Of a stretch of DNA of 39,356 nt, positions 10,630-37,916 are shown piece by piece (positions within the stretch are counted from its first letter, which is position 1; each line of letters starts with the position of its first letter). The stretch lies in IMG/VR virus record IMGVR_UViG_2671180568_000005. One strand, given 5' to 3'. Under the pieces are notes generated by a model, which was given only the letters and a program-made list of their open reading frames with translations, made no database searches and was not told the origin of the DNA. A program made the translations under genes and the position numbers. This DNA comes from a virus. Lineage: Duplodnaviria > Heunggongvirae > Uroviricota > Caudoviricetes.

Positions 10630-10633
10630 ACCA

Positions 10634-10945
10634 ATGACGACACCAACCAGACGGATAAGTTTCTATCTGAAGCCCGCCGCCGTCAAGAACGAAGGCGAAG
10701 CATGCGCCTGGCTGGACAGCCTTACACCAGAAGCCCGCAAAAGTGGTCAACGCGTGGCTTTTCTGGCCGGGCTGGCACTACTGAAAATGAATCCGGCAGA
10801 GGCTTACCGACTGGCTGCATGGGCTGATGATGAGGCGTTATCAATGACACAAACCAGGACAGAACGCCCCGCGTCACAGCCAGTATCAGCCGCACAGATA
10901 ACCAGTCAGATGGCCGGAAATATCCGGGCGTTATTTCCCGAATAA
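10634..10945 (+). CDS. parR: ParR/StbB-like centromere-binding adaptor
   Basis: RRISFYLKPAAV...LDSLTPEARKSGQRVAFLAGLALL...IRALFPE parallels R1 ParR (ribbon-helix-helix N-terminus, conserved C-terminal tail); AAGGAG ribosome-binding site; 4 bp after the parM stop. Confidence 0.7.
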   Translation: MTTPTRRISFYLKPAAVKNEGEACAWLDSLTPEARKSGQRVAFLAGLALLKMNPAEAYRLAAWADDEALSMTQTRTERPASQPVSAAQITSQMAGNIRALFPE

Positions 10946-17348: not shown

Positions 17349-18401
17349 ATGAATCTGGTGATGTCAGATATTACCCGCAACAAGCTGGGTTGCTATATGG
17401 CGCAGCAGGCGTCGCTTAACAATATCCCGGTATCTGCACTGGTATCGCGATTTACCGTGGAACCCGCGGTGCAGCAGCGTTTTGAAAACGCCTCAAAGGA
17501 AAGTACCGAATTTACGAAAAGAATTAACGTGATCGGCGTGACCGACCAGAAAGGCGAAAAAATCCTCCTGGACACCACCGGGCCAATTGCGCGCACGAAT
17601 AGCAGTTATGACGGCATCAAACGCCGTAACCCGAATAACGTGATCGATATGAAGTCTCGTCAGTACCAGTGCGAACAGGTGAACTACGATACCTTTATTT
17701 CGTACCCACAGCTTGATACCTGGGCGGCCCACAGCGATTTTCAGTCCCGTATCAGTACACAGATCGCCCGGCAGGTAGCGCTTGATCGCATCATGATTGG
17801 CTTTAACGGCACATCCCACGCCTACGAGTCTGATTTTCACACCAACAAGCTGCTTCAGGACGTTAACGTGGGCTGGCTGGAGCACATCAGAACCGATGCC
17901 AGCGAGCGCGTAATGAATGACGTGACGCTGACCTCCCGCAACATGGACAACACTGTGGCGCACGCGGGTAAGTATGCGAATGCCGATGCTCTGGTACAGG
18001 ATGCGCGCTCATCCCTGCTGGATGAATGGCACAAGGAAGCTGACGACCTCGCGGTGATTATGGGGCGCAACCTGTTTAACTCGCTGCGTCTGCCCGTGCT
18101 GAACAGCATCAGCGGCCAGAATCCCAATGCGGAATTACTTGCCGGGCAGCTCATCCTGTCATCGCGCACCATTGGCGGGCTGGGCGTGTTCCTTGCGCCG
18201 TTCTTCCCGGATGCAACGATGCTTATCACCTCGTTCAACAACCTGTCGATTTACTGGCAGAAAGGTTCAATGCGTCGCCTGATGAAAGACGAGCCGGAAT
18301 ACAACCGCATCGCCACCTACCAGTCCATCAATGACGCTTATGTCGTTGAAGACTATGGCAAGTGCGCAATGATCACTGGCCTGAAGTTCGCCGACAGCTA
18401 A
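17349..18401 (+). CDS. N: Major capsid protein (P2 gpN-like)
   Basis: 350 aa; conserved blocks such as FTVEP, GEKI, MIGFNG, VGWL, FFPDATMLIT, NLSIYW, YVVEDY. Confidence 0.85.
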   Translation: MNLVMSDITRNKLGCYMAQQASLNNIPVSALVSRFTVEPAVQQRFENASKESTEFTKRINVIGVTDQKGEKILLDTTGPIARTNSSYDGIKRRNPNNVIDMKSRQYQCEQVNYDTFISYPQLDTWAAHSDFQSRISTQIARQVALDRIMIGFNGTSHAYESDFHTNKLLQDVNVGWLEHIRTDASERVMNDVTLTSRNMDNTVAHAGKYANADALVQDARSSLLDEWHKEADDLAVIMGRNLFNSLRLPVLNSISGQNPNAELLAGQLILSSRTIGGLGVFLAPFFPDATMLITSFNNLSIYWQKGSMRRLMKDEPEYNRIATYQSINDAYVVEDYGKCAMITGLKFADS

Positions 18402-20369: not shown

Positions 20370-20758
20370 GCAACACATTTAAATTCAGCAGCCGGAGCGA
20401 AAAGAATTTGCAGGGTGTAAATCCTGATCTGGTGAAAGTGACCCGACGGGCGCTGGAAATCTCGGAAGTGGATTTTGGTATCACCGAAGGATTGCGCAGT
20501 CGTTATCGTCAGAAGCAGCTCGTGACCACAGGCAAGAGCCAGACCATGAACAGTCGCCATCTCACAGGGCATGCCGTGGATGTTGTGGCTTATGTCGGCA
20601 ACCAGGTGTCATGGGAATGGCCGCTGTACGAAAAAATCGCAGCAGCATTCAGACAGGCCAGCCAGGAACTGAATATTCCGGTGGAATGGGGCGGCGACTG
20701 GAAGACCCTGAAAGACGGACCGCATTTTCAGTTACCACACGGAGCCTATCCGGCATGA
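20366..20758 (+). CDS. Endolysin, peptidase M15 family (L-alanyl-D-glutamate endopeptidase type)
   Basis: Motif SRHLTGHAVDV (metal-binding His/Asp of M15 peptidases); position in the lysis cassette. Confidence 0.8.
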   Translation: MSNTFKFSSRSEKNLQGVNPDLVKVTRRALEISEVDFGITEGLRSRYRQKQLVTTGKSQTMNSRHLTGHAVDVVAYVGNQVSWEWPLYEKIAAAFRQASQELNIPVEWGGDWKTLKDGPHFQLPHGAYPA

Positions 20759-21150
20759 AGCTCTGGCCCACGCTTGGCGTCGCTTTCCTTCTGATTACAT
20801 CCATGCGTCTGTCGTGGTCGCTGGGCCGGGAGAACGCCAGAAACGAAGCGCAGGCCAGCACCCTGAAAAGTACCGTCGACACACTGAATATCATCAGCGC
20901 CGGGGTACAGGATATGCAGCAGGTGCTGGCTCAGCTCCGCGCGGAAAATCAGCAACGCAATCAGGACGGAGAGGTAAGACGTGAACAGCTACGCAACGAT
21001 ATTGCAAAAGATGAATGCGCCCACGCTTTGCCTGACGCTCGTTTTACTGACAGGTTGCGCAGGCACGCAGAACGAGCCAGGGCCAGCGCCGTCAGTCCGG
21101 CTTATACCGCAGACGCTGACCATGCCGGTAACGCCTCCCCCCTTCCCTGA
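20755..21150 (+). CDS. Rz-like inner-membrane spanin
   Basis: N-terminal transmembrane segment LWPTLGVAFLLI followed by coiled-coil-like sequence. Confidence 0.7.
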   Translation: MKLWPTLGVAFLLITSMRLSWSLGRENARNEAQASTLKSTVDTLNIISAGVQDMQQVLAQLRAENQQRNQDGEVRREQLRNDIAKDECAHALPDARFTDRLRRHAERARASAVSPAYTADADHAGNASPLP

Positions 21151-21292
21151 CCCACCCACATGGGGAAACCTCGGAATATGGGGCGACCGCCTTCTGGATG
21201 CACTGGAAACCTGTAACGCGGATAAACGGGCCATTGCTGAACTGGATAAGAGAATAGCCGAACCGACACACCAGACGGGAGTAACACAATGA
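21011..21292 (+). CDS. Rz1-like outer-membrane lipoprotein spanin, overlapping the Rz gene out of frame
   Basis: Signal peptide with lipobox LLTGC and a proline-rich mature region; starts inside the Rz reading frame. Confidence 0.65.
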   Translation: MNAPTLCLTLVLLTGCAGTQNEPGPAPSVRLIPQTLTMPVTPPPFPDPPTWGNLGIWGDRLLDALETCNADKRAIAELDKRIAEPTHQTGVTQ

Positions 21293-23169
21293 CCAGTAAG
21301 AACTTTGCACTGATTACAGCCATGACACAGGCTGAACTGACTCAAAAGGTGAATGAACATCTTGCGAAAGGGTGGCATCTTCAGGGGGAGACGCGGGTTG
21401 CCTACGAACCCGGCACCCCGTGGTATCTAATGCAGGCAATGGTGGCCGATGGCACTACAGACATCTCACCTGATTCCCCCCAGCACGGCAGCGTGCCGGA
21501 GTGGTATTACGTGGTGGTACTTGCTGGTCAATCCAATGCCATGTCATATGGTGATGGAATGCCGCTGCCGGATTCTTACGATGCGCCCCACCCACGCATT
21601 AAGCAACTGGCCCGTCGCAACACAGTGACTCCCGGTGGTAAAGCATGCGCATTTAACGACATCATTCCGGCAGACCACTGCCTGCATGATGTTCAGGATA
21701 TGAGCGCACTGAATCATCCGAAGGCAGACCTGAGCAAAGGGCAGTACGGCTGTGTCGGCCAGGGCTTACATATTGCCAAAAAACTGCTCCCGTATATCCC
21801 GAATAACGCGGGGATCCTGCTGGTACCATGCTGCCGTGGTGGTTCGGCATTCACTCAGGGCGCGGAGGGAACATTCAGTACGACCACGGGGGCCAGCCAG
21901 GATTCGGCGCGCTGGGGTGTGGGTAAACCGTTATATCAGGACCTGATTGCGCGCACTAAAGCTGCATTACAGAAGAACCCGAAAAATGTGTTGCTGGCGG
22001 TGTGCTGGATGCAGGGCGAATTTGACATGAGCGCTGCCACCTACGCACAGCAACCGGACCTGTTCACGGCCATGCTGAAGCAGTTCCGTACTGACCTTTC
22101 CGGATTTAACGCGCAGTGCCATGGCGGCAGTGCTGCAGTTGTACCGTGGATTTGTGGCGACACGACGTATTACTGGAAAAACACATACGGCACACAGTAT
22201 GACTCCGTCTACGGCGCGTACAAAAACAGGGAGAGCGACAACGTTTTCTTTGTGCCGTTCATGACCGACGGTAACGGCAACAACACACCCACCAACTTAC
22301 CGGCAGAAGACCCGGATATTGCTGATGCAGGTTATTACGGCGCGCAATCCCGTAGTAATGGTAATTGGGTATCGTCAAATCGTCCGACACATTTCAGTTC
22401 ATGGGCGCGCAGGGGCATTATTTCGGATCGCCTGGCAACCGCTATTCTGAACGCAGTTGGTCGAACCAGCGCCTTCATCAGCGGTACCGCACCGGAGATT
22501 AAACCCTCNNNNNNNNNNNNNNNNNNNNNNNNNNNNNNNNNNNNNNNNNNNNNNNNNNNNNNNNNNNNNNNNNNNNNNNNNNNNNNNNNNNNNNNNNNNN
22601 NNNNNNNNNNNNNNNNNNNNNNNNNNNNNNNNNNNNNNNNNNNNNNNNNNNNNNNNNNNNNNNNNNNNNNNNNNNNNNNNNNNNNNNNNNNNNNNNNNNN
22701 NNNNNNNNNNNNNNNNNNNNNNNNNNNNNNNNNNNNNNNNNNNNNNNNNNNNNNNNNNNNNNNNNNNNNNNNNNNNNNNNNNNNNNNNNNNNNNNNNNNN
22801 NNNNNNNNNNNNNNNNNNNNNNNNNNNNNNNNNNNNNNNNNNNNNNNNNNNNNNNNNNNNNNNNNNNNNNNNNNNNNNNNNNNNNNNNNNNNNNNNNNNN
22901 NNNNNNNNNNNNNNNNNNNNNNNNNNNNNNNNNNNNNNNNNNNNNNNNNNNNNNNNNNNNNNNNNNNNNNNNNNNNNNNNNNNNNNNNNNNNNNNNNNNN
23001 CACGGTTACTCCGAAACTGAATGGAGTGGCTGGCCCGGCATTCCAGGTCATAAAAGACAGTCTGACACTGGGGCTGAATGCGCTGACGTTAACTGATATC
23101 ACTAAAAATGCCGCGTACGGCGTCGATATCGGCAGCCTGGTGCTGGAAATCAATAATCCCGCAGTATAA
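21289..23169 (+). CDS. NanS-p-like sialate O-acetylesterase (DUF1737-like N-domain plus SASA/SGNH domain); interior replaced by a 492-N gap
   Basis: N-terminus ITAMTQAELTQKVNEHLAKGWHLQGE and esterase block VVVLAGQSNAMSYGDG (GQSN motif); residues encoded by 22509-23000 are unknown. Confidence 0.65.
   Translation: MTSKNFALITAMTQAELTQKVNEHLAKGWHLQGETRVAYEPGTPWYLMQAMVADGTTDISPDSPQHGSVPEWYYVVVLAGQSNAMSYGDGMPLPDSYDAPHPRIKQLARRNTVTPGGKACAFNDIIPADHCLHDVQDMSALNHPKADLSKGQYGCVGQGLHIAKKLLPYIPNNAGILLVPCCRGGSAFTQGAEGTFSTTTGASQDSARWGVGKPLYQDLIARTKAALQKNPKNVLLAVCWMQGEFDMSAATYAQQPDLFTAMLKQFRTDLSGFNAQCHGGSAAVVPWICGDTTYYWKNTYGTQYDSVYGAYKNRESDNVFFVPFMTDGNGNNTPTNLPAEDPDIADAGYYGAQSRSNGNWVSSNRPTHFSSWARRGIISDRLATAILNAVGRTSAFISGTAPEIKPXXXXXXXXXXXXXXXXXXXXXXXXXXXXXXXXXXXXXXXXXXXXXXXXXXXXXXXXXXXXXXXXXXXXXXXXXXXXXXXXXXXXXXXXXXXXXXXXXXXXXXXXXXXXXXXXXXXXXXXXXXXXXXXXXXXXXXXXXXXXXXXXXXXXXXXXXXXXXXXXXXXXXTVTPKLNGVAGPAFQVIKDSLTLGLNALTLTDITKNAAYGVDIGSLVLEINNPAV
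22509..23000. other. Gap (492 N) inside the esterase gene
   Basis: Run of n characters. Confidence 0.99.
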
Positions 23170-23192
23170 GGAAGAGCAGGAGAGCAAAACAG

Positions 23193-23660
23193 ATGCTTAA
23201 GACAAACAGTCTGCGAGAGTCCATGCTTCATGGATGTCGGTGGTGCCAGGCTAATCCCGAGAAATTCACCATTTTCGTGGAGAGCGGCAACATTGAAACG
23301 ACCGGAGAAACCCCATCGTTTGTTTACCGCTATCAGATGGTGATGTTTGTCATGGATTACGCCGGGGAGCTGGACGACCTCACGCTGCCGCTGCTGGCGT
23401 GGTTATCCGAAAATCAGCCACAGTTGTTGCTCAACCCTGAGCGTAATCAGGACATCAAATTCTCCGCCGTTATCAATGACGATGACAGCGCCGATCTCCT
23501 GTTTACGCTCCCCCTGCGGGAACGCGTTCGCATCACGCGCAGCAGTCAGGGCACACCGCAGGCAGAACACCTGTCGGAGCCAAAACCCCGCCTGCCATCT
23601 TCCGAAGGCGACTGGTCGCATGTATTCCAGGATGTGACGTGGGGTGAAAGCGATGGATAA
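23193..23660 (+). CDS. R: Tail completion protein (P2 gpR-like)
   Basis: MLKTNSLRESMLHG...LPLLAWLSENQPQ parallels gpR. Confidence 0.8.
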   Translation: MLKTNSLRESMLHGCRWCQANPEKFTIFVESGNIETTGETPSFVYRYQMVMFVMDYAGELDDLTLPLLAWLSENQPQLLLNPERNQDIKFSAVINDDDSADLLFTLPLRERVRITRSSQGTPQAEHLSEPKPRLPSSEGDWSHVFQDVTWGESDG

Positions 23661-24288
23661 GGCATTCACCAGCGTGGATGAAACCTTTGAGGCTATCCGC
23701 GACAGCCTGAATCAGCAGGCCATCAATAACATCGCCAGAAAGCTGGCACAGGATTTACGTCGCGCCCAGCAGGCGCGTATCCGGTCACAAAAAGCGCCGG
23801 ACGGGACCGAATGGACACCACGCAGACGCCGCGTAACCCGGATACAGGAGCGCATTCGCTTTATCTGGAATAACGAAGCACGCACGCTGAAAAACTGGCA
23901 TCACGACACGGGGAAATACGGGCGAACCATTACCGGGTGGGATGAGGATAAAAACAATATCCGCACGTTTTACCGGGATGACATCGACCGTTTTCTGGAA
24001 ATACGCACCCGGCGCATCAACCAGGACAGCACAAAGCGCGTCCCCATGTTCGTAAAACTGCGCACCGCCCGCTACCTGAAAGCCCGTGCAGATGCCTCCG
24101 GTGTGACGGTGGGTTACAGCGGCGTGGCCGCACGTATTGCACGCGTTCATCAGTTCGGTGAGCGCGATCAGGTTGCGCCGGGCATTTTCACCGATTACCC
24201 GGTACGTGAGCTGTTGGGTATCAGCCAGGCAGATGAGCGCCTGATTTATAACACGGTGCTGGGCCGGATTGCGGAGGCTGTACGGTGA
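23644..24288 (+). CDS. S: Tail completion / virion morphogenesis protein (gpS position)
   Basis: Position between R and V; PDGTEWTP block. Confidence 0.6.
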   Translation: MKAMDKAFTSVDETFEAIRDSLNQQAINNIARKLAQDLRRAQQARIRSQKAPDGTEWTPRRRRVTRIQERIRFIWNNEARTLKNWHHDTGKYGRTITGWDEDKNNIRTFYRDDIDRFLEIRTRRINQDSTKRVPMFVKLRTARYLKARADASGVTVGYSGVAARIARVHQFGERDQVAPGIFTDYPVRELLGISQADERLIYNTVLGRIAEAVR

Positions 24289-24866
24289 GCGCAGAACTCA
24301 TGCGACTGCTGAGCAACATCATCCGCACCGGGATCATCTCTGAAGTTGATGAGAAGTCCTGGCGCGTGCGCGTTCGCAGCGGCGAACTGGAAACAGGCTG
24401 GTTGCGCTGGAACACCACGCGCGCGGGAGCCTTCAATGTGTGGCTGCCGCCATCACCAGGCGAACAGGTGGTAATTGCCTGCATTGGCGGCAACCCGGAA
24501 ACCGCCATGATAATTGGCAGCCTGTGGAGTGATGCCAGTCCGGCCCCCGGCAAAAGCCTGAAAGAAATCGTGGTCAGCGCGCCGGATGGCGCGGTGTTCC
24601 GCTACGACGCAGACGCTGGCGCACTGAGCGCCAGCGGCATGAAAACAGCCACCCTGCAGGCATCCGTCAGCGTGACACTGGATACGCCCGTCGTGGAATG
24701 CACAAACCTTCTGAGAACAGCGACGCTTGACGTCACAAAAGGGGGAAAGATGAGCGGCAATATCACGCACAGCGGCGGCAACTTCACCTCAAACGGCATC
24801 ACAGTGCATACGCATAAACACGGTGGCGTGAAAGGCGGCAGCGATTCGACAGGAGGCCCGCAGTGA
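24285..24866 (+). CDS. V: Baseplate central spike (P2 gpV-like)
   Basis: 193-aa ORF with a glycine-rich C-terminus, immediately upstream of W. Confidence 0.85.
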   Translation: MSAELMRLLSNIIRTGIISEVDEKSWRVRVRSGELETGWLRWNTTRAGAFNVWLPPSPGEQVVIACIGGNPETAMIIGSLWSDASPAPGKSLKEIVVSAPDGAVFRYDADAGALSASGMKTATLQASVSVTLDTPVVECTNLLRTATLDVTKGGKMSGNITHSGGNFTSNGITVHTHKHGGVKGGSDSTGGPQ

Positions 24867-25213
24867 CAACCCGCTACACAGGAATGAATCCGGACGGGAC
24901 GGGAAACCTGAATGATATGGAGCACCTGAAACAGTCAGCCAGGGACATCCTGACCACCCCGCTGACCAGCCGGGTTATGCGACGGGAATATGGCAGCCTT
25001 GTACCTGATTTGATTGACGAACCCATGAATAACACCACGCGTCTGCAATGCATGAGTGCTGCCGTGATTGCGCTGACACGATGGGAACCCCGCATTGCCC
25101 TGGACGCCATCGACGTTGTCTGGAAAGCGGGAGGCCGCGCCGGGGTGACGCTGTCGGGCACTGTCATGCAGACCATGCAGAATGTTGAGTTAACCATCAC
25201 GCTGAGGGAGTAA
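24863..25213 (+). CDS. W: Baseplate wedge protein (P2 gpW-like, gp25 fold)
   Basis: MTTRYTGMNPDG...SRVMRREYGSL...WEPRIAL matches gpW blocks. Confidence 0.85.
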   Translation: MTTRYTGMNPDGTGNLNDMEHLKQSARDILTTPLTSRVMRREYGSLVPDLIDEPMNNTTRLQCMSAAVIALTRWEPRIALDAIDVVWKAGGRAGVTLSGTVMQTMQNVELTITLRE

Positions 25214-25216
25214 ATC

Positions 25217-26113
25217 ATGCCTGCTGTTGACCTTTCCCAGTTACCGGAACCCGCCATCATCGCGAAGCCTGATTTTGAGGCAATTCTGGCTGACACAAAG
25301 GCCATGATGATTGCGTCCTATCCTGCCGAACAGCGTGAAGCCGTCTCCGCCGCGCTGGAGCTGGAATCGGAACCCCTGAACGTTATCGCCCAGACAACAG
25401 CGTTTCGTGAAATGCTGTTACGCCAGCGGGTCAATGAGGGTGCACGCGCCTGCATGTTAAGCCACAGCGCCGGGACAGACCTGGACAACCTCGCGGGCAA
25501 TATGAACACAAAGCGCCTGGTTATCACTCCGGCAACGGATACCACCGACGCGGTGATGGAAAGCGACACATCGCTGAGACTGCGGGCGCAACGGGCGTAT
25601 GACGGTCTGAGTGTTGCTGGCCCGTCAGGCGCATACGAGTATTTTGCACGCAGCGCCAGCGGTCTGGTACGCGACGCGCGAGCCATCAGCCCGTCTCCGG
25701 CCAACGTGACGGTTTCCATCCTGTCCACTGAAGGCGACGGCACAGCAACGGAGGCGTTGCTTAATACCGTTCGCGCCGTTCTGAATGCAGAGGATACCCG
25801 CCCGGTGGCCGACCGCCTGACCGTACAGAGCGCCAGAATCGTGACATGGCGGCTGAATGCAAAACTGTACTTTTACCCCGGCCCGGAATCCGAACCTATT
25901 CTGGCCGCGGCTGAATCGTCGTTCAGGAAGTGGCTGGCTGAGCAGGGGCTTATCGGTCAGGACGTGGCGTTGTCCGCCATTGCTGCCGCACTGCATGTGC
26001 ACGGTGTGCAACGCGTGGAGATAATCGAACCCACACAGAATATGGCCATCAGCGACATACAGGCGGCGCGCTGTGAGTCATTCACCATCAGCGAAGGTGG
26101 ACGCAATGAGTAA
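25217..26113 (+). CDS. J: Baseplate protein (P2 gpJ-like)
   Basis: 298 aa; position and size. Confidence 0.85.
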   Translation: MPAVDLSQLPEPAIIAKPDFEAILADTKAMMIASYPAEQREAVSAALELESEPLNVIAQTTAFREMLLRQRVNEGARACMLSHSAGTDLDNLAGNMNTKRLVITPATDTTDAVMESDTSLRLRAQRAYDGLSVAGPSGAYEYFARSASGLVRDARAISPSPANVTVSILSTEGDGTATEALLNTVRAVLNAEDTRPVADRLTVQSARIVTWRLNAKLYFYPGPESEPILAAAESSFRKWLAEQGLIGQDVALSAIAAALHVHGVQRVEIIEPTQNMAISDIQAARCESFTISEGGRNE

Positions 26114-26714
26114 TTCGTTGTTACCACCATCAGCCAGCAATTTCATGCGTTGTGCCGAAGCCGTCGGAACACGCATTACAGACATTCCGGTAGACCTCAA
26201 CACGCTGTGGTCGCCGGACACCTGCCCGGTGCATCTGCTGCCTTATCTCGCCTGGGCGTTTTCCGTTGACCGCTGGGATCGCAACTGGCCGGAAGAGACA
26301 AAGCGACAGGTGATTCGTGATGCATGGCTGATACACCGACACAAAGGGACCATCAGCGCACTGCGAAGAGCCGTGGAGCCTCTCGGCTACCTGATTGAAG
26401 TAAAGGAGTGGTGGCAACTCAACGAGGAGCCGGGAACATTTCGCATTGTTGTCGGAGTACTTGATCAGGGCATCACCGATGAAATGTATCAGGAACTTGA
26501 GCGCCTTATTGCGGATGCAAAACCAGTAAGTCGCCATCTGACGGGGCTGGCGATCAGCCTGAGTGTGAACGGAAAGATTTTCGTTGGTACGGGATGCTAT
26601 CACGGCGATGCCCTGACGGTTTATCCCTACACCCCGGAGTCCATTATTGTCGAAGGGGATTATTTCCCTGCCCCGGCCATTCATTTAATTGATAATCTGA
26701 GAGTAAACGCATGA
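26106..26714 (+). CDS. I: Baseplate/tail protein (P2 gpI-like)
   Basis: MSNSLLPP...LWSPDTCPVHLLPYLAWAFSVDRWD parallels gpI. Confidence 0.85.
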   Translation: MSNSLLPPSASNFMRCAEAVGTRITDIPVDLNTLWSPDTCPVHLLPYLAWAFSVDRWDRNWPEETKRQVIRDAWLIHRHKGTISALRRAVEPLGYLIEVKEWWQLNEEPGTFRIVVGVLDQGITDEMYQELERLIADAKPVSRHLTGLAISLSVNGKIFVGTGCYHGDALTVYPYTPESIIVEGDYFPAPAIHLIDNLRVNA

Positions 26715-28440
26715 CAGTGAAATACTACGCCATTCTGACTAATCAGGGCGCGGCACGACTGGCTAACGCGACGATGCTCGGCAGTAAGCTGAATCTGACG
26801 CGAATGGCCGTTGGTGATGCAAATGGTGTGTTACCAACACCAGACCCTGCACAAACAAAACTGATTAACCAGAAACGCATTGCACCGCTGAATCTTCTGA
26901 GTGTTGACCCTAACAATCAGAGCCAGATTATTGCGGAGCAAATCATCCCTGAAAGCGAGGGTGGATTCTGGATCCGTGAGATTGGTCTTTATGATGATAA
27001 AGGTGTACTCATTGCGGTGGCAAACTGCCCGGAAACGTACAAACCGCAGTTGCAGGAAGGCAGTGGACGCACCCAGACTATCCGCATGATTCTGGTTGTC
27101 ACGAACACCGAAGCCATCACGCTGAAAATCGACCCGTCTGTGGTTCTGGCAACCCGCAAATATGTGGATGATAAAATATCAGAGCACGAGCAGTCACGAC
27201 GTCACCCGGACGCCTCGCTGACCGCAAAAGGCTTTGTTCAACTTAGCAGTGCCACGGACAGTCAATCAGAAACTGAGGCTGCCACGCCGAAGGCTGTGAA
27301 AATCGCGTATGATCTGGCCCGGGGAAAATACACAGCCCAGGATGCAACAACGACCCGTAAAGGGATCGTACAACTGAGCAGCGCCACCAACAGCACCTCT
27401 GAAACGCTGGCCGCCACACCAAAAGCCGTCAAGGCTGCATACGACCTTGCAGCCGGCAAGGCGCCCGTCAGCCACACTCACCCGTGGAGTCAGATAACGG
27501 GAGTGCCTGCTGCCTCGCTGACGGCAAAAGGCACCGTACAACTGAGCAGTGCCATCAACAGCACGTCTGAAATACTGGCCGCCACACCGAAAGCGGTCAA
27601 GGCTGCATACGATCTGGCAGCCGGCAAGGCGCCCGTCAGCCACACTCACCCGTGGAGTCAGATAACGGGAGTGCCTGCTGCCTCGCTGACGGCAAAAGGC
27701 ACCGTACAACTGAGCAGTGCCATCAACAGCACGTCTGAAATACTGGCCGCCACACCGAAAGCGGTCAAGGCTGCATACGATCTGGCAAACGGAAAACAAC
27801 CGGCAGATGCCACGCTCACTGCTCTGGCAGGACTTGCCACTGCAGCAGATCGGTTGCCTTATTTTACCGGAGCAGACCGCGCAGCGCTGGCAACCCTTAC
27901 AGCTATTGGTCGCGCTATTATCGCTAAGGGCAGTATAAAAGATGTCCTCAATTACCTTGGTTTNNNNNNNNNNTTGGTTTGGGGGAAGGCTCTGCATTGC
28001 CTGTTGGTGTACCGGTTCCATGGCCCACCGCCACACCGCCAGCAGGCTGGTTACAGTGCAACGGAGCTACGTTCACCAAAGAACAATATCCTGTTCTGGC
28101 CAGAGTCTACCCGACCCTCCGTCTTCCCGATTTGCGCGGTGAGTTTATCCGTGGATGGGACGGTGGTCGCAAGGTTGATACCGGGCGTGCGCTACTTTCA
28201 TTTCAGGAAGGGACTATCGTATCCGGTTTTGATGATAATGATAACGGAGATATCAGTTCGCTCGGCTCTACACAATACGGATTTGGTGACGCTTTAACCT
28301 CTAATCAACTGGGGGTCTTAAATGGCAAAAAGTGGATATTTGATGCATCCTCTAAAGGTGCACAAAGATATGACTGGTGGGCTTATGTATCAGCTCGCCC
28401 CCGCAATATCGCATTTAACTATATCGTGAGGGCGGCGTGA
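26711..28440 (+). CDS. H: Tail fibre protein (gpH-like): constant part fused to a variable tip; reading frame apparently broken by the 10-N gap
   Basis: N-terminus MTVKYYAILTNQGAARLANA; repeated fibre motif TAKGxVQLSSA...TPKAVKAAYDLA; after the gap the frame 27979..28440 continues with GEGSALPVGVPVPWPTATPPAGW and ends NYIVRAA. Confidence 0.75.
27451..27786 (+). repeat. Perfect tandem duplication of a 168-bp (56-codon) unit inside the fibre gene
   Basis: 27451-27618 repeats at 27619-27786; two older diverged copies of the motif lie upstream. Confidence 0.85.
27964..27973. other. Scaffold gap (10 N) at the constant/variable fibre junction
   Basis: Run of n characters; ttggttt is present on both sides. 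Confidence 0.99.
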
Positions 28441-28446
28441 TACCGT

Positions 28447-29061
28447 TCAACTGGCAAGTGCCAGTGGTGCTTCCGGCCAGCTGATTTCAGGTGCCGTGCT
28501 GATATCCAGTGCGTTCAGCTCGTCGATATAATCCAGCACGGCGTTCAGTTTTGCCGTTTCTTCTGGTGTCAGACTGCGACCAGCACGCAGTTTGAGGTTG
28601 ATAAGATCGACGGACGCCATCGCCTGTTTCACCCGTTGCTGGCGTTGCTGTCTGGCAACCTCCAGTTCTGCGGTTCGCTGCCGTTCAGTATCGGTTACCC
28701 ACGCCTCACCGTTCCAGGTATCCCATGGCGTGGCTGGCTGTTTTGTGGTGGTGTCCGCCGGGTAATCACCCGGTTGGGTAATCAGAACGGGGTTACCGTT
28801 CTCCGTGCTGTATACCGTCTCGCCGCGGTGATCAGGCACATGCTCCCACCCGTTCAGCGTGGCAGTCCGGCAAACCACGTAACCCGAAATTGCCTCCGGC
28901 GGTGCATCGGCGCACGAATGTGCCGGAGTACCCACCCCAAGGGCGAGATACTCCACAGAGGATGAGGTGTATTCCCGGGTTTCCTCGTCATAGTGATATA
29001 CAGTGATATCGCCCGCTACAGTGGCGATACCGTTTTCATCCAGAACTGCAGTGTTACTCAT
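28447..29061 (-). CDS. Tail fibre assembly chaperone (Tfa/gpG/Mu U family)
   Basis: 204 aa with a C-terminal ...LDYIDELNALDISTAPEISWPEAP tail typical of Tfa proteins; adjacent to the alternative fibre tip. Confidence 0.75.
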   Translation of the reverse strand: MSNTAVLDENGIATVAGDITVYHYDEETREYTSSSVEYLALGVGTPAHSCADAPPEAISGYVVCRTATLNGWEHVPDHRGETVYSTENGNPVLITQPGDYPADTTTKQPATPWDTWNGEAWVTDTERQRTAELEVARQQRQQRVKQAMASVDLINLKLRAGRSLTPEETAKLNAVLDYIDELNALDISTAPEISWPEAPLALAS

Positions 29062-29630
29062 TAAACTGCCCTCACAATGTAATTAAGTGCAATGCTACGG
29101 GGTCTGACAGTGATACCCTTCGCATACCCGCTTCTGATAGAGGTCAGAATAGTAGCCTGCATACCATTGTCTGACATTGCTATGACAGGATCGCTGAATG
29201 TTGTCCCGTCCGGCATTTTAAAGCTGCCCTCACGAAGGTCTGTAATGGAATCTTCATTGTTGAATCCCATGCCGACTATCCCCGAGGTTCCCGTAGTGTC
29301 CTGGTTATAATAATCCAGCATTGCTGTTCTTAACAGCGTTGCCCCTTGTGCGGACAGCAACTTACGTCCTGTATCAACTTTGCGCCCGTCATCCCATCCA
29401 CGGATAAACTCACCGCGTAAATCGGGAAGACGGAGGGTCGGGTAGGCTCTGGCCAGAACAGGATATTGTTCTTTTGTAAAGGCGCGCCCGTCGCACTTTA
29501 ACCAGCCTGCTGGCGGTGTGGCGGTGGGCCACGGAACAGGCACACCAACGGGTAGCGCCGAGCCTTCTCCTAAACCAACGTTTTCGTTTTTATCCCTACC
29601 TATACCAACTCTGTATTTTTCACGAAACAA
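29061..29630 (-). CDS. Alternative tail-fibre C-terminal cassette, promoterless and on the opposite strand
   Basis: Shares GLGEGSALPVGVPVPWPTATPPAGWL and the C-terminal NYIVRA motif with the tip at 27979-28440; begins with TTG and has no independent ribosome-binding site. Confidence 0.7.
   Translation of the reverse strand: MFREKYRVGIGRDKNENVGLGEGSALPVGVPVPWPTATPPAGWLKCDGRAFTKEQYPVLARAYPTLRLPDLRGEFIRGWDDGRKVDTGRKLLSAQGATLLRTAMLDYYNQDTTGTSGIVGMGFNNEDSITDLREGSFKMPDGTTFSDPVIAMSDNGMQATILTSIRSGYAKGITVRPRSIALNYIVRAV
29565..29590. promoter_or_regulatory. Candidate right crossover site for the invertase (ttctcctaaaccaacgttttcgtttt), mirrored across the gap at about 27955-27990
   Basis: AAACC/GGTTT half-site pattern reminiscent of hix/gix/cix sites; position immediately upstream of the invertase gene. 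Confidence 0.35.
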
Positions 29631-29644
29631 AGAGGATGTTTTTT

Positions 29645-30244
29645 ATGCAAATTGGCTATATTCGTGTGTCAACAAACGACCAGAACACGGATTTACAACG
29701 CAATGCACTGAACTGCGCAGGATGTGAACTGATTTTTGAAGATAAAATCAGCGGAACGAAATCAACCAGACCGGGATTGAAAAAACTGCTCAGAACGCTA
29801 TCAGAAGGAGATACGCTGGTTGTCTGGAAGCTGGACAGACTGGGCAGAAGTATGAAACACCTGATCACGCTTATTGAGGAATTGCGGGAAAAAGGTGTTA
29901 ATTTCCGTAGTCTGACGGACAGCATTGACACGTCAACACCCATGGGGCGTTTCTTTTTTCACGTCATGGGGGCTTTAGCCGAAATGGAACGTGAATTAAT
30001 TGTAGAACGTACACTGGCTGGGCTGGCAGCAGCACGCGCACAAGGACGCATTGGCGGACGTCGCCCGAAGTTGACAAAAGAACAACACGAGCAAATAGCG
30101 AGGCTGATTAAAAACGGTCATGACAGGAAACAACTGGCGATCATTTACGACATCGGCATATCGACGATTTATCGTTATCACCCTGTAGGCGATATACAGG
30201 CTGAAGAAACAACCAGGCAGACTCAGGAAAATGAAAACCGCTAA
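29645..30244 (+). CDS. Serine DNA invertase of the Hin/Gin/Pin/Cin family
   Basis: MQIGYIRVSTNDQNTDLQRNAL...VVWKLDRLGRSMKHLI...GRFFFHVMGALAEMERELI with the catalytic Ser in YIRVST and a C-terminal HTH. Confidence 0.9.
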   Translation: MQIGYIRVSTNDQNTDLQRNALNCAGCELIFEDKISGTKSTRPGLKKLLRTLSEGDTLVVWKLDRLGRSMKHLITLIEELREKGVNFRSLTDSIDTSTPMGRFFFHVMGALAEMERELIVERTLAGLAAARAQGRIGGRRPKLTKEQHEQIARLIKNGHDRKQLAIIYDIGISTIYRYHPVGDIQAEETTRQTQENENR

Positions 30245-30263
30245 TCTGACCATTAGCGGTTTT
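30234..30263. terminator. Bidirectional terminator hairpin aaaaccgctaat-ctgacc-attagcggtttt between the convergent invertase and U genes
   Basis: 12-bp perfect stem flanked by A and T runs. Confidence 0.65.
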
Positions 30264-30270
30264 GCGTTAA

Positions 30271-30765
30271 TCAAAACAGCCCTTTAACAGAGCTGGCCGC
30301 GCTGTTGAGGGATGATGTGACCTTATCTTTGAAGCCGGACAGCATATCACTGAACGATGAGGATTGCAGACGCTCCCGCAAATCCTCATCACAGCGTTCA
30401 AGAGTCAGTGAAAATTCTATCTTTTTCGCCTTACCATAGCGATCAAACTCGGAACGGGTCGTATTCGTTTCAGTCAGTACATACATGCCGTAAATCTGCC
30501 CGACACCATCAATCAGAGGCCAGGGGCGTCCTGTATATGCCTGCGTGGTCAGCAACGAAAGCGACACTTCGCCACCTGTAATTTCAGGATAAAGCACGCC
30601 GGAAAGCACGATGCGATCATCACCTGCACCGATATACTGCCAGCTTGCTGAGCGGTTTACGCGCTCATTTTTCACATGCCGCCAGCTTTTGTTTTGCTGT
30701 AACTGCTGATGCGGCAATGTGCGCAGCTCAAAAACAAACATGCCGTAGATCATCATCATGGCCAT
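30271..30765 (-). CDS. U: Tail protein (P2 gpU-like)
   Basis: FVFELRTLPHQQLQQNKSWRH...RIVLSGVLYPEITGG parallels gpU. Confidence 0.8.
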   Translation of the reverse strand: MAMMMIYGMFVFELRTLPHQQLQQNKSWRHVKNERVNRSASWQYIGAGDDRIVLSGVLYPEITGGEVSLSLLTTQAYTGRPWPLIDGVGQIYGMYVLTETNTTRSEFDRYGKAKKIEFSLTLERCDEDLRERLQSSSFSDMLSGFKDKVTSSLNSAASSVKGLF

Positions 30766-30771
30766 GACTCC

Positions 30772-33588
30772 TCAATCTTTATCGTAAAAACTGCCACGCC
30801 CGGCACGGGCACGCCGTTCCATTTCTGCCCTGACCATTTCACCGACCAGTTTCGCCAGTTCGCGGGGATTCTGCGTAACAACGTTATGCAGATGAACATG
30901 AATTTCACCACCAAATCCGGAGGCAACAGGCTCCCGGTTACGGGAAGTTACAGGAACTGATGCCACTGGAGATCGTATGGCCTCCGCCACCGGGCGGGAG
31001 CTGGCCGCAACAACAGGGACCAGCGCCGGAGGCAGCGGAGCCGGGACCACGGGAGTGATATTCATTGCGGGGGCAGGCTTACTGACCTGTGCAATCTTCC
31101 GCTCCTGCCACTCCCCACGAACAGCAAGTGCGCGGGGCAGGTTCTTAAAGACAATATCGCCGGGGCCAATACGTTTTTTTGTCTCATCAACCAGCTTACC
31201 TGTGTTATCAGCAATTTTGCTGAGTCTGCGCAGCGTACCGGTATTGCTGTCTGTGAGCGGTTTGTTGTCTTTGGGTTTATCACCTCCGGTGCCATTGCCA
31301 TTTTCCACAGGCTTCGGCGGATTGATTTTCGCCAGGTCCCCCTGAAGTAAGGCAACCTTGTCCTGAAGAATGGCCGCACGCTGTGCGTCTTCGATTTTCT
31401 TGCGCGCCCTTTCCGCTTCATCCGGAAGGACGCCAAGTTTTTCAAGTATCCACGCCAGCGTATCCAGCAACATTTTTGCAGGCGTCAGAACAAGTTGTAA
31501 CGCACCGCCAAGAACGTTACCGAATATCTCGCCAGCACTGGTACATTTATCCAGCGTTTCCTTGCTGGATTCCATCGGTGACAGCAGCGATTTAAACCAG
31601 TTAAACACCTGGCTGATCCCGCTTCCGATTGCGTCAAAAACAGGACCAAACCGTTCAAAGGTTTCGCGCAACGGGTTCAGCCTTTCCATAATCCCGTTGA
31701 ACACCCCGGCATAAAACGCCTTAATGGGTTCCCAGTATTTCCAGATGAGAACCGCCGCAGCCACAAACGCAGCAGCAATCAATCCGACCGGACTGAACAG
31801 CGCCCCGATAGCGCCTCCCAGCAAAGAAACGGAACCCGTCACCATTCCCCACAGCGCAGGCAACACCCTGACGACATTCATTGACCGGGTAAGAATGTCA
31901 AAACCAAGACGCAGGGTGGCCAGCTTCCCGTAAAGCACCCCAATAACCAGCGACAACGAGCCAATCGTTGCAGTCATTGCCAGCAACGCACCGCCTGCTA
32001 TCAGTAGCTGGCGCGTCAGTACCGGATGGGCCTGCGCCAGCGAGGTGACTTTTTCAAGCACCCGCGTGAGCCACTGCGTGACAGAACGCAGCGGACCGTC
32101 AACCAGATCACTGATGCGAATACGAAGACCTTCCCATGCGCTGTCGAGATTTTTCAGGTCCCCATCAAGATTATCGGCCATTACTTTTGCAACGCGATCG
32201 GACTCTCCCCTTGCCCCCTGCAATTCTCTGGTCAGTTTTTGCAGCTCTCCTGAACCAGCCGCCGCAACAAGCGTCTGCAAACCAACGAACGCCTCTTCTC
32301 CGGCGATGTCCTTGAAGAAGGAGACCTGGTCCACCTGTCCGTATTTTTGTGTCGCCTTATAGAGATCAAGCAGCACATCCTCCATCGGGCGCATTTTGCC
32401 TCTGGCGTCAGCAACTGACACCCCCAGCTCTTTCAGTGCATCAGCCGCAGCTTTTGGCGGTGATGCAAGGCGGGACAGACTTGCGCGCATGGCCGTACCA
32501 GCATCGCTTCCGCGAAGACCATTATTGGCAAGCATCCCGGCCATGGCTGCCGCTTCTTCAAGACTGATACCAAGTTTTGCGGCAACCGGACCGGTATACT
32601 TCATGGTTTCGCCCAGCGCGCGTAAATCAGTATTGGTCCGGGTGAATGCCGCTGTCAGCGTATCGCCAACCCGGTCCATTTGATCGGCTGTCAGGTTGAA
32701 CTGTGTGAGGATATTGGAGCCTATATCCGCCGTCTCGCCGAGTTCGACGCCACCTGCCAGCGCCATATTAAGAACACCGGGCAATGCGGCCTGAATGGCC
32801 TGCGGAGTAAAACCAGCCATTGCCAGAAAGCTCTGTCCACTGGCGGCATCACTCGCAGTAAACTGTGTTTCAGAGCCAAGTTTTAACGCCTGCTCACGCA
32901 GCGCCTTAAACTGCGGGCTGTTTTTGTCGATTCGCGTCAGTGCCTGAACGCGGGACATCTCTTTCCCGAACCCGATCGCAGGCTGCAAAAAACGCCCGGC
33001 AGCATAGCCGCCAGCCGCTGCCGCACCAATTGTCAGCGCACCACCTGTTTTCAGTTTTCCCGCGGTTTCCTGCGCGCGCGAATACCGCTCACGCGCCCGC
33101 GTTACACGCGCAAGCGCCTGCCGTTCGCGTTCAAGCTGGTTGTTGTACTGTTCGGTGCGTCTGATGGCCTGCTGGATGGTGTTATCGCTGCCTGTCAGGG
33201 AAATGCCGTGGCGTTTCAGCTCTCCGCCAAGTTCCCGCATTTTCTGAATTTCCCGTGTGCGCGATTCATTCAGGCGTTCAAGCCGGGTGCTTAACTGCTG
33301 CATCAGCTTTTGTTGTTTTTCGCTGAGCACTGTACCCGTGCGTTGTAACTGATTAAGGGCGTTAAGCTGGCGTCGTGCTTTCACGATGCCCGCATCCGCT
33401 TTACTGACAGCGTCACGGGCGCGCTCAAATGAACGCGCCTGACGCTCGAGATTTTTGATCGCCCCCTGCGTTCGCTGGATGGAGTCACCAAACTGCCCCA
33501 TCAGGCGGCGGGCGTTTTCGGCAGGCCGGGTCAGCCTGTCAACGGCGCTGAAAGCGACCCGGATATCAAGAGTCTTCATTGTCTGCAT
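30772..33588 (-). CDS. T: Tail tape measure protein (P2 gpT-like)
   Basis: 938 aa, coiled-coil and Gly/Ala-rich transmembrane-like middle; position between E and U. Confidence 0.85.
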   Translation of the reverse strand: MQTMKTLDIRVAFSAVDRLTRPAENARRLMGQFGDSIQRTQGAIKNLERQARSFERARDAVSKADAGIVKARRQLNALNQLQRTGTVLSEKQQKLMQQLSTRLERLNESRTREIQKMRELGGELKRHGISLTGSDNTIQQAIRRTEQYNNQLERERQALARVTRARERYSRAQETAGKLKTGGALTIGAAAAGGYAAGRFLQPAIGFGKEMSRVQALTRIDKNSPQFKALREQALKLGSETQFTASDAASGQSFLAMAGFTPQAIQAALPGVLNMALAGGVELGETADIGSNILTQFNLTADQMDRVGDTLTAAFTRTNTDLRALGETMKYTGPVAAKLGISLEEAAAMAGMLANNGLRGSDAGTAMRASLSRLASPPKAAADALKELGVSVADARGKMRPMEDVLLDLYKATQKYGQVDQVSFFKDIAGEEAFVGLQTLVAAAGSGELQKLTRELQGARGESDRVAKVMADNLDGDLKNLDSAWEGLRIRISDLVDGPLRSVTQWLTRVLEKVTSLAQAHPVLTRQLLIAGGALLAMTATIGSLSLVIGVLYGKLATLRLGFDILTRSMNVVRVLPALWGMVTGSVSLLGGAIGALFSPVGLIAAAFVAAAVLIWKYWEPIKAFYAGVFNGIMERLNPLRETFERFGPVFDAIGSGISQVFNWFKSLLSPMESSKETLDKCTSAGEIFGNVLGGALQLVLTPAKMLLDTLAWILEKLGVLPDEAERARKKIEDAQRAAILQDKVALLQGDLAKINPPKPVENGNGTGGDKPKDNKPLTDSNTGTLRRLSKIADNTGKLVDETKKRIGPGDIVFKNLPRALAVRGEWQERKIAQVSKPAPAMNITPVVPAPLPPALVPVVAASSRPVAEAIRSPVASVPVTSRNREPVASGFGGEIHVHLHNVVTQNPRELAKLVGEMVRAEMERRARAGRGSFYDKD

Positions 33589-34104: not shown

Positions 34105-34159
34105 CAGTTGTCTCCTTTTCAGTCAGAGGCGACGCACTGCGCCGCCTGCATATTACTTA

Positions 34160-35856: not shown

Positions 35857-36013
35857 AGCTTCAGCCCCTTGTATCCGTTAAATGATTCGGCAACAATCAT
35901 CACCCACCACGCGCGTAATCTCACCCCTGCGCCGTTCTCCCGCCACGGCGACAACAAAAAGCAGTAACCCCCTCCGCACGCACATGCGACCATGCCGCAC
36001 AGGGAGGGAGCAG
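35857..36013. promoter_or_regulatory. Divergent intergenic region between FI (minus) and D (plus); presumed late promoters
   Basis: Position only. Confidence 0.3.
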
Positions 36014-37885: not shown

Positions 37886-37916
37886 GTTCCCTCACTCATG
37901 AGGACACCAAAAAACA

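Follow-up and report, generated by a model that had tools for sequence, protein, structure and literature searches.

A nanS-p-like sialate O-acetylesterase gene among the late genes of a P2-family prophage, with a front domain that looks tailored to phage type

We find that the window, the whole stretch of 39,356 nucleotides of viral DNA analysed here, very probably encodes an intact sialate 9-O-acetylesterase of the NanS-p type in a P2-type late operon, with a function as for other members of the family. The gene itself is an ordinary member of a common and already described family. What looks new, from sequence comparison, is its domain pattern: a small front domain that seems tailored to the type of phage. 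Domain identities support an exchange of the esterase and C-terminal domains with lambdoid alleles, while the DUF1737 front domain appears to follow the phage backbone. In EHEC, NanS-p counts as a fitness factor that is associated with virulence and stems from Stx and other lambdoid prophages. The same enzyme is a regular passenger of P2-family prophages too and, therefore, copy counts limited to lambdoid prophages miss the P2-borne copies. The domain pattern also leads to the prediction that the small front domain decides on which phage capsid the enzyme travels. If so, NanS-p would shift from a nutrient gene of the lysogen to a device by which the phage particle interacts with mucus; if the capsid prediction fails, the gene simply adds an allele to a well-described family.

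The features on which the analysis rests are as follows.

20755..21150, + strand: lysB-like i-spanin gene (DUF2570; Pfam, RefSeq annotation)
21032..21292, + strand: lysC, o-spanin gene (Pfam LysC PF23793, E=1.4e-13; RefSeq annotation)
~21237..23235 (approximate), + strand: segment differing from P88 and nanS-p-free relatives (junction alignment)
21289..23169, + strand: nanS-p-like gene, 626 codons plus stop codon, ATG start (ORF listing)
21298..21447, + strand: DUF1737 N-terminal domain, residues 4-53, P2-backbone-specific variant (Pfam E=3.3e-07)
21454..21495, + strand: Ser/Pro/Asp-rich linker, residues 56-69, TTDISPDSPQHGSV, predicted disordered
21493..22452, + strand: SGNH/SASA esterase domain, residues 69-388 (3PT5 match, E=1.9e-123 over residues 69-388)
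21532-21534 and 22390-22392, + strand: codons of Ser82 and His368, esterase active site
22509..23000, no strand: N-run of 492 nt, 164 codons (residues 408-571), in frame
22579..23157, + strand: DUF6645, lectin-like jelly-roll C-terminal domain, residues 431-623 (Pfam E=2.2e-19)
23193..23660, + strand: gpR tail-completion gene (Pfam P2_Phage_GpR, E=3.8e-38)

As an earlier, sequence-only reading of this DNA had noted, the large reading frame directly follows the spanin genes. Its ATG overlaps the lysC TGA at 21290-21292 (ATGA, 21289-21292), a GGGAG Shine-Dalgarno sequence precedes the start, and 23 nt separate its stop codon from the start of gpR. Pfam identifies an M15 endolysin, a DUF2570 LysB-like protein and LysC on the 5' side, and P2 gpR followed by gpS (E=4e-27) on the 3' side. 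The assignment to a late position in a P2-like prophage was likewise upheld. Positions 1289-22508 are 100% identical to NZ_CP006632.1 of E. coli PCN033, from which our reference copy comes, and positions 23001-39356 show 0 mismatches to it (99.9%, with one 17-nt gap at a 10-N run), giving a total of 37.5 kb of readable sequence without mismatch. RefSeq annotates the identical region of PCN033 as a complete P2-family prophage, from integrase and cox through gpA to gpD and ogr, including gpO, the P2-family capsid protein, gpM, gpL, gpX, V, W, J, I, H, and the tail sheath and tube. These P2-type capsid and tail genes and their order place the prophage in the P2 family (Peduoviridae, P88-like).

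The gene lacks what marks a classical moron, namely a promoter and terminator of its own and a deviant base composition. Between 16000 and 25000 a single promoter-like site was found, inside the 3' end of nanS-p and below shuffle expectation; a simple consensus scan of the same interval revealed no + strand terminators flanking the gene, with a count below shuffle expectation; and the GC content is 0.50-0.58 in nanS-p versus 0.51-0.62 in the flanks. The lack of its own promoter and terminator, together with the overlap with the lysC stop, therefore makes nanS-p a late-operon gene. Looking for TGT-N12-ACA, the dyad of P2 late promoters, was uninformative (4 matches versus 9.2 expected, none at the expected positions and one inside nanS-p), and late-promoter control consequently rests on gene order. 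From the order lysC-nanS-p-gpR and the simple consensus scans we infer that nanS-p is expressed only late. The earlier label of "cargo" may understate the role of the gene, given these missing signatures and a capsid-bound homologue in phi24B.

Under the N-run lie linker 2 and the greater part of the C-terminal domain; the sequence-only reading had considered intactness impossible to judge. Its 492 N are confirmed; however, the identical PCN033 reference shows an intact gene, 1881 nt long without stop or frameshift, in which the stretch matching the N-run measures exactly 492 nt. An assembly gap hiding damage is ruled out because the length of the run equals that of the reference exactly, and by this comparison the run is a mask and no real gap. 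Neither of the observations that had been named as fatal to the proposal appeared: the PCN033 interior contains no frameshift or stop, and profile searches assign the domain to SASA. Where synonymous divergence permits a reliable estimate, dN/dS values of 0.10-0.26 were obtained for each of the three domains, indicating that all of them are under purifying selection.

On the visible N-terminal 406 residues, Pfam places DUF1737 at residues 4-53 (E=7.6e-07, 29.3 bits, cutoff 24) and SASA at residues 75-271 (E=1.7e-13, 51.2 bits, cutoff 24.8), bearing out the proposed DUF1737-like N-terminus and SASA-family GQSN block (residues 80-83, nt 21526-21537). The DUF6645 sequence was taken from the identical PCN033, because the window is masked there. 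The full-length PCN033 protein scores 30.5 bits for DUF1737 (cutoff 24), 49.3 for SASA (24.8) and 70.1 for DUF6645 (27), so that the suggested NanS-p architecture of DUF1737, SASA and DUF6645 is complete and above gathering cutoffs throughout. Matches to 3PT5 and to 6YP6, the solved phi24B "NanS-p" C-terminal domain (E=3.9e-30), establish close kinship to experimentally characterised members. All SGNH blocks were found, namely GQSNA (Ser82), RGGSAF (183-188), MQGEFD (241-246) and RxTHFS (His368), and these catalytic blocks are conserved over ten homologues. They are as listed for 3PT5, including R-x-(S/T)-HFS (PMC10792757), and the catalytic Ser and His of NanS have been confirmed by mutagenesis (PMC10017367). 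By eye, from the 3PT5 alignment, we estimate the catalytic domain to be ~68% identical to NanS. An NCBIfam search of the protein gave no match, its PHROGs match is phrog_143 ("unknown function"), and the RefSeq label of the PCN033 copy (WP_047938338.1) reads only "DUF6645 domain-containing protein".

The protein would thus comprise three modules: DUF1737 (residues 1-55) with a flexible linker (AF2 pLDDT <50 at residues 56-74), the SGNH/SASA esterase with Ser82 and His368, and a lectin-like jelly-roll domain that is probably carbohydrate-binding. We propose a late operon in the order capsid, lysis genes, nanS-p, and tail-completion genes R and S, in which translation of nanS-p would be coupled to that of lysC. 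As a member of the late operon, NanS-p would therefore be made only on prophage induction, a timing deduced from this membership. Since its N-terminus is a DUF1737 fold with no signal peptide, it would leave the cell only via phage lysis. Outside the cell it would remove 9-O-acetyl groups from sialic acids, for example Neu5,9Ac2 on mucins, as shown for family members, and the deacetylated sialic acids would become usable by neighbouring lysogens. Every tested NanS-p allele of EDL933 and of O104:H4 C227-11 phi-cu is an active esterase allowing growth on Neu5,9Ac2, and mucin sialic acids are also substrates of tested members (PMC8065619, PMC5923452).

About 35% of P88-like prophages carry nanS-p, and the P2-type gene is present in 376 of 5,426 complete E. 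coli genomes (~7%), including the pandemic ST131 clone, the O104:H4 outbreak strain and an ExPEC isolate from a pig; RefSeq names it in these genomes, too, no further than "DUF6645 domain-containing protein". At this same position the O104:H4 strain holds an allele of 98.6-98.9% identity, with 100% amino-acid identity through the masked stretch. O104:H4 C227-11 has nanS-p copies in five places, which are not mappable onto the five published alleles of its Stx-phage-cured derivative. Other P2-family lineages contain, in the same lysC-gpR slot, homologues with 55-64% overall identity. In the nanS-p-free P88-like phages (P88, 503458, 520873, 500465-2, PhiR44_2, Chuche and P884B11) lysC runs directly into gpR; the differing segment comprises the last ~17 lysC codons, nanS-p and the first ~14 gpR codons, and in P88-like phages the sequences on either side of it adjoin each other, with 96-97% identity. 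The P2-type gene occurs in only three phage records, of which at least two end inside it. Frameshifted versions occur in the public records P0001-P0004, where DUF1737 is kept and the frame shifts just 5' of the GQSN block. With the N-domain alone as query, the search for homologues recovered nothing but short or frameshifted pieces of this gene and so no broader view of the family, and a megablast of the second P2 lineage against deposited phages gave no match.

The suggestion that one cargo is shared by unrelated phage backbones stood for the esterase domain (88% identical to the closest lambdoid allele) and the C-terminal domain (84%) and failed for DUF1737 (22-35% identical to lambdoid versions), which follows the P2 backbone. 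N-domains from P2 contexts are 49-76% identical among themselves and 22-45% identical to lambdoid ones, while the identities of the esterase and C-terminal domains do not track the backbone. DNA homology to Stx-phage alleles starts at gene nt 207, and over nt 401-800 the identity is 95-96% to the Stx1-phage allele versus 80-95% to another P2-borne allele. In 367 genomes the 206 nt of N-domain DNA share 99% identity or more, even though differences of up to 20% per 100-nt window separate the esterase cores of two P2-borne alleles. This pattern suggests that nanS-p is a long-standing resident of several P2-family lineages, whose esterase and C-terminal modules have been repeatedly overwritten through recombination with the copies that lambdoid prophages carry in the same host. 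The tracking of the backbone by the N-domain could also be simple linkage, with crossovers only within the conserved core leaving a divergent 5' end.

What the front domain does is suggested by a loop, EPG(T/V)P(W/F)YLMQ (EPGTPWYLMQ, residues 40-49, within the DUF1737 domain here), that is invariant in 6 of 6 P2-context proteins, missing from lambdoid ones, and aligned with the Tyr42-bearing loop of phi24B. A 2026 preprint, not peer-reviewed, reports that this phi24B loop inserts into the capsid hexon pore, that the full-length homologue is an abundant capsid-bound virion protein whose DUF1737 hexamer is resolved on the capsid, and that DUF1737 binds only the flat hexon at the facet centre of this T=9 podovirus. 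It also describes self-processing of gp84 at its linkers after release, noting SSP motifs there; the linkers of the window protein contain comparable Ser-Pro motifs (DISPDSP, KPSPGG..PSGPS). The AF2 model of the N-domain (strand 5-11, helix 14-26, strands 29-31, 36-38 and 46-53, loop 39-45; pLDDT 70-86) reveals a helix on an antiparallel sheet with an exposed loop, in agreement with the gp84-type DUF1737 fold described in the preprint. Foldseek, run with this model against the PDB, yielded only generic small alpha/beta folds without significance (best E=0.23); the entries compared included no DUF1737 or phi24B capsid structure. P2-type capsids are T=7 and are not known to have a flat facet-centre hexon, which counts against tethering here.

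Because phi24B DUF1737 binds its capsid, capsid tethering is plausible here. That DUF1737 tethers the enzyme to a P2-type capsid, and that the virion itself would carry a mucus-modifying enzyme, is a tentative reading by analogy, to which we grant somewhat less than an even chance. Any structural role would be dispensable, since P88 and its close relatives lack the gene. A broader proposal, which we regard as possible but rather doubtful, is that DUF1737 is an interchangeable capsid adaptor and NanS-p a virion-surface mucus-modifying enzyme of several unrelated E. coli phage types. The P2-specific loop variant would then dock the esterase-plus-lectin unit onto P2-type myovirus capsids, the phi24B variant would dock the same unit onto a T=9 podovirus capsid, and a non-DUF1737 N-domain would fill the same role in Mu-like prophages; NanS-p would be more than a metabolic gift to the lysogen. 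We note that four P88-like prophages with nanS-p can be told apart from three without it by 12 positions of the capsid protein. This is not counted as evidence of capsid co-adaptation, because it does not exceed the divergence that the two sub-lineages show in general.

The strongest competitor of capsid tethering, with a chance that we place close to even, is that the gene serves the lysogen alone: a soluble public good released from a few lysed cells would feed sibling lysogens and never enter the virion, and DUF1737 would serve oligomerisation, solubility or the like and track the backbone by genetic linkage only. EHEC growth on Neu5,9Ac2 indeed scales with nanS-p copy number (PMC5923452, PMC8065619), and nanS-p-free P88-like phages exist, the deposited P88 among them. 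In one P2 sub-lineage the N-domain is more variable than the capsid protein (67-76% versus 98% identity), and the capsid-protein differences just described, about equal to sub-lineage divergence, fit a soluble enzyme as well. Against this reading stand the abundance of the phi24B homologue in the virion with its resolved DUF1737 hexamer (2026 preprint), an N-domain dN/dS of 0.13 (one P2a-P2b comparison, the sole estimable case), and a putative anchor loop that is invariant although the capsid proteins of the P2 lineages are only 61-62% identical.

We consider it improbable that the true substrate is a bacterial surface glycan (such as an O-antigen with O-acetyl groups, K1 polysialic acid or another capsule) and not host mucin, with the enzyme aiding receptor access or escape from debris as virion-borne deacetylases of some other phages do. 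The possibility has been raised for NanS-p in a review (PMC8065619), the gene sits amid virion genes, and the lectin-like C-terminal domain is 35-93% identical between alleles, as in receptor-binding modules. However, Neu5,9Ac2 and mucin sialic acids are substrates of every tested family member (PMC8065619, PMC5923452), the catalytic core is close to NanS by the estimate given above and recurs across very different serotypes (ST131, O104:H4, O55:H7, O157), and activity on LPS or capsule is not known from any experiment. A broken, inactive copy with its defect under the N-run, as the masked interior and the frameshifted versions in P0001-P0004 might suggest, is very improbable in view of the mismatch-free match to PCN033 with its intact copy of the same length, the O104:H4 allele identical through the masked stretch, and visible flanks that are in frame with the catalytic residues present.

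Among known systems, P88 and its relatives (Xuanwuvirus, Peduoviridae) are closest in backbone: their late region, taken from the head-completion gene through to baseplate gene V, is 96-97% identical, and the P88 major capsid protein is 94% identical to that of the nanS-p prophage, but unlike the window prophage they have no esterase gene between lysC and gpR. The Stx-phage proteins 933W L0105/z1466 and phi24B gp84 (vb_24B_21) have DUF1737-SASA-DUF6645 and the catalytic blocks in common with the window protein, are likewise prophage-borne, late-transcribed and without signal peptide, and the phi24B 6YP6 domain is homologous to its C-terminal domain; their backbone is that of a lambdoid podovirus, whereas ours is that of a P2-family myovirus. 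The 933W protein is 53% identical overall (N-domain 22%, esterase 70%, C-terminal domain 37%), and the anchor loop reads YEPGTPWY here versus TAGYGAEF, with Tyr42, in 933W and phi24B. The closest lambdoid allele, yjhS of the Stx1a-converting phage Stx1_14040 (LC567819), is 81% identical overall, with 88% in the esterase, 90% in linker 2, 84% in the C-terminal domain and 35% in DUF1737. The sequence-only reading had lambdoid Stx phages place the gene after their lysis genes. It actually lies between stx and holin, before the lysis cassette (between stx2B and holin S in 933W, and between stx1B and holin in Stx1_14040), whereas here it lies 3' of the spanin genes. Both positions are late-transcribed, as had been supposed, but they are not equivalent, because the lambdoid gene precedes the lysis cassette.

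NanS (YjhS, 3PT5) has the same SGNH core, Ser/His active site and oxyanion blocks as the window protein, but is a single domain of ~330 residues without DUF1737 or a lectin-like domain. Chromosomal NanS is exported via a signal peptide; in its place the window protein has a folded N-domain (AF2 model). By analogy only, a tethered NanS-p would resemble T4 Hoc in being an accessory, dispensable capsid-surface protein in contact with mucin glycans, and the phi24B preprint (2026) itself compares capsid-bound NanS-p with the mucus-binding Hoc. Hoc is a non-enzymatic Ig-like monomer, whereas the exposed module of the window protein would be an esterase joined to a lectin-like domain.

The nanS-p-like gene is an intact late-operon gene whose masked interior can be read from a reference genome. 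The features concerned are:

21289..23169, + strand: nanS-p-like ORF, 626 codons with an ATG start in the ORF listing
22509-23000: N-run of 492 nt, or 164 codons, in frame
about 21237-23235: segment of ~2 kb that sets the window apart from P88 and six gene-free deposited relatives

The ORF lies where the sequence-only reading placed it, directly after the spanin genes, and both domains proposed there are matched by Pfam: the 406 readable residues before the gap contain DUF1737 (aa 4-53) and SASA (aa 75-271), each above its curated cutoff, with the GQSN block at aa 80-83. By Pfam, the 5' neighbours are an M15 endolysin, a DUF2570 LysB-like protein and LysC, and the 3' neighbours are P2 gpR and then gpS. 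The lysC stop codon and the nanS-p ATG overlap (ATGA at 21289-21292), a Shine-Dalgarno sequence (GGGAG) sits 7 nt 5' of the start, and 23 nt separate the nanS-p stop codon from gpR.

The worry that the gap hides a frameshift or stop can be set aside. Compared with the complete E. coli PCN033 genome (NZ_CP006632.1), window positions 1289 to 39356 show 0 mismatches outside N-runs; they differ only by a gap of 17 nt, which falls at a run of 10 N in a tail-fibre gene. The PCN033 counterpart of the masked stretch is exactly 492 nt, and its gene (1881 nt) is free of stop codons and frameshifts. The N-run is therefore a mask whose length is true, and it hides no lesion. Residues 408-571, read from PCN033, comprise a Pro/Ser/Gly-rich linker and most of DUF6645 (Pfam, E=2.2e-19); the O104:H4 allele has the identical amino-acid sequence across them.

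A second 10-N run lies near the left end (88-97). The one in the tail-fibre region (26711-30230) occupies 27964-27973, and there the window exceeds PCN033 by 17 nt. This region also holds an internal direct repeat of ~260 nt (27359-27619 and 27527-27787) with 96% identity between its copies, fibre-tip segments that are homologous but inverted (27974-28188 and 29364-29581, compared with the opposite strand) and, nearby, a serine recombinase gene. Taken together, these features resemble an invertible host-range segment of the Gin/Cin type.

The assignment as a NanS-p-like sialate O-acetylesterase holds. Residues 69-388 match the solved NanS/YjhS structure 3PT5 (E=1.9e-123), and residues 431-623 match the C-terminal domain of phi24B 'NanS-p', 6YP6 (E=3.9e-30). 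All four listed active-site blocks of 3PT5, GQSNA, RGGSAF, MQGEFD and R-x-S-HFS (PMC10792757), are found in the protein, Ser82 and His368 among them; the catalytic role of the NanS Ser and His was established by mutagenesis (PMC10017367). In all three domains, dN/dS is 0.10-0.26 where synonymous divergence sufficed for a reliable estimate. The protein is an intact, selected NanS-p family member; RefSeq names it merely 'DUF6645 domain-containing protein' and PHROGs lists it under 'unknown function'. NanS-p enzymes take 9-O-acetyl groups off Neu5,9Ac2 and mucin sialic acids, and EHEC growth on Neu5,9Ac2 scales with nanS-p copy number (PMC8065619; PMC5923452). Judging from its sequence, we are highly confident that the protein described here shares this 9-O-acetyl-removing activity.

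The prophage is a complete P2-family element and a near relative of phage P88 (Xuanwuvirus), with gene flanks 96-97% and capsid protein 94% identical. The esterase gene is absent from P88 and from six other deposited relatives, in which gpR follows lysC directly; the ~2-kb segment is made up of a variant 3' end of lysC, the esterase gene and a variant 5' end of gpR. A scan of the gene's flanks for promoter-like or terminator-like sites found none, its GC content resembles the backbone, and it is translationally coupled to lysC by the ATGA overlap. These features argue for a late-operon gene rather than a classical moron. For the P2 late-promoter dyad (TGT-N12-ACA) there were 4 matches against 9.2 expected by chance, one of them within the gene and none where a promoter would be expected. 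NanS-p would then be produced solely upon prophage induction and let out through lysis; in the AF2 model, a folded DUF1737 occupies the usual signal-peptide place.

Two further loci accompany this backbone. At 9670-10945, ParM-like and plasmid-partition-family genes, unusual equipment in an integrated P2-type phage, adjoin the gpA replication gene. A Hok/Gef-family toxin gene, called from the annotation of the identical PCN033 record, lies at the prophage right end just before serS (about 37601-37741).

The late position had been likened to that of lambdoid Stx prophages, with nanS-p after the lysis genes. In fact, in the Stx1 phage, 933W and one non-Stx lambdoid prophage, the gene has stx (or the Q region) on one side and the holin on the other, upstream of the lysis cassette. 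Both places are transcribed late, but they are not equivalent.

The proposal that this cargo moves between unrelated backbones stands for the esterase and C-terminal modules but not for DUF1737, which stays with its backbone. Against the Stx1-phage allele, identity is 35% in DUF1737, 88% in the esterase, 90% in linker 2 and 84% in the C-terminal domain; against 933W, the values are 22%, 70%, 36% and 37%. Among ten representatives, N-domains cluster by backbone (49-76% within the P2 context, 22-45% against lambdoid copies), whereas the esterase and C-terminal domains do not. At the DNA level, the two P2-borne alleles, from PCN033 and ST131, share 99-100% identity in nt 1-400 and close to the 3' end, but just 80-85% in nt 500-900, while nt 401-800 of the PCN033 allele are 95-96% identical to the Stx1-phage allele. 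Such a mosaic is the mark of gene conversion that acted on the core, between prophages of different families sharing a host.

More distant homologues with a related N-terminus are 55-64% identical overall. All four whose contigs were inspected (proteins P0065, P0081, P0047 and P0098) belong to other P2-family lineages, with a lysozyme-type endolysin and capsid proteins 61-62% identical to the window's, and occupy the same slot from spanin genes to gpR. A lambdoid and a Mu-like copy share 90% identity in the esterase and 86% in the C-terminal domain. The Mu-like homologue is:

L014:8001-10049 (contig AASWYJ010000037.1, GCA_012617125.1): NanS-p homologue of 682 aa

It lacks DUF1737 and carries instead an unrelated N-terminal segment of ~120 aa with zero Pfam matches; its gene lies at the right end of the prophage, where a gin-like resolvase precedes it and com and a DNA methylase follow. 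A small DUF1378 ORF, sometimes followed by DUF826, lies directly 3' of nanS-p in lambdoid, Mu-like and second-lineage P2-like contexts (loci L009:10046-10213, L010:10036-10200, L013:10105-10257, L014:10184-10366, L015:10090-10266), which suggests that they travel as a unit. In the window this ORF is absent, gpR beginning 23 nt downstream.

Of 5,426 complete E. coli genomes, 1,060 contain a P88-like late region, and 22 of 60 records sampled evenly from those 1,060 carry the esterase gene. Counted directly with a 206-nt probe specific to the P2-type N-domain, carriers number 376 of the 5,426 (6.9%), and in 367 of these the match reaches >=99% identity; all matches listed lie inside a DUF6645 gene, most also overlapping lysC. 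The gene is found in ST131 O25b:H4, the 2011 O104:H4 outbreak lineage, O55:H7 DEC5E and environmental isolates, among others. Counting every kind of NanS-p-like esterase core, 1,995 of the 5,426 genomes have at least one (median 3 copies, maximum 17). Homologues are encoded by 347 deposited phage genomes, nearly all Stx or other lambdoid; the P2-type gene appears in only three deposited phage records, at least two of which end within it. Public assemblies also hold frameshifted forms of the P2-type gene (P0001-P0004; P0001 represents 45 sequences on 24 contigs) that retain DUF1737 and change frame just before the GQSN block, the alternative frame being window ORF 21449..21628. Some lineages may express a stand-alone N-domain.

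According to a 2026 preprint (10.64898/2026.04.10.717836), the full-length homologue phi24B gp84 is abundant in the virion, where its DUF1737 hexamer plugs the capsid hexon pore via a Tyr42-bearing loop, and the protein then processes itself at Ser-Pro-containing linkers. Our AF2 model of aa 1-74 shows a small helix-plus-sheet fold of the gp84 DUF1737 kind, with an exposed loop (39-45) and a disordered linker. The motif EPG(T/V)P(W/F)YLMQ is found in this loop and the next strand; it is invariant in 6/6 P2-context proteins and missing from lambdoid ones among the ten representatives, and the window protein's linkers contain Ser-Pro motifs. By analogy, these features fit a DUF1737 that might serve as a backbone-specific capsid adaptor tethering the esterase, a tentative reading that we think somewhat more apt to fail than to hold. 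P2 capsids are T=7 and are not known to have the flat hexon at the facet centre that gp84 selects, which counts against tethering, as do the gene-free relatives, deposited phage P88 included, and capsid-protein differences between carriers and non-carriers that are no larger than general sub-lineage divergence. Nor did a Foldseek comparison of the N-domain model with the PDB return a significant match (best E=0.23). The divergent 5' end could instead stay with its backbone through linkage alone.

In the major capsid protein (17349-18401), twelve positions (40, 85, 90, 99, 101, 103, 105, 124, 129, 159, 162 and 164) split four nanS-p-positive from three nanS-p-negative P88-like prophages, a small sample; several changes are non-conservative (D159Y, S164H, P129S). 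The split may be sub-lineage structure only.

In sum, the NanS-p family, its activity and its three-domain build are already known, nanS-p in non-Stx prophages is on record (PMC10462455), and hundreds of sequenced genomes, those of intensively studied strains included, contain the window allele itself. A literature search, with the key O104:H4 study outside its reach, returned nothing linking nanS-p with P2-like prophages, and we class the gene as a family member that is new or, at the least, undescribed. To what is known, our analysis adds (I) that the gene is intact, (II) that it is a late-operon resident in several P2-family lineages, and (III) that its N-domain tracks the phage backbone while the rest is swapped with lambdoid and Mu-like copies. 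The capsid-adaptor hypothesis is the sole part able to surprise specialists.
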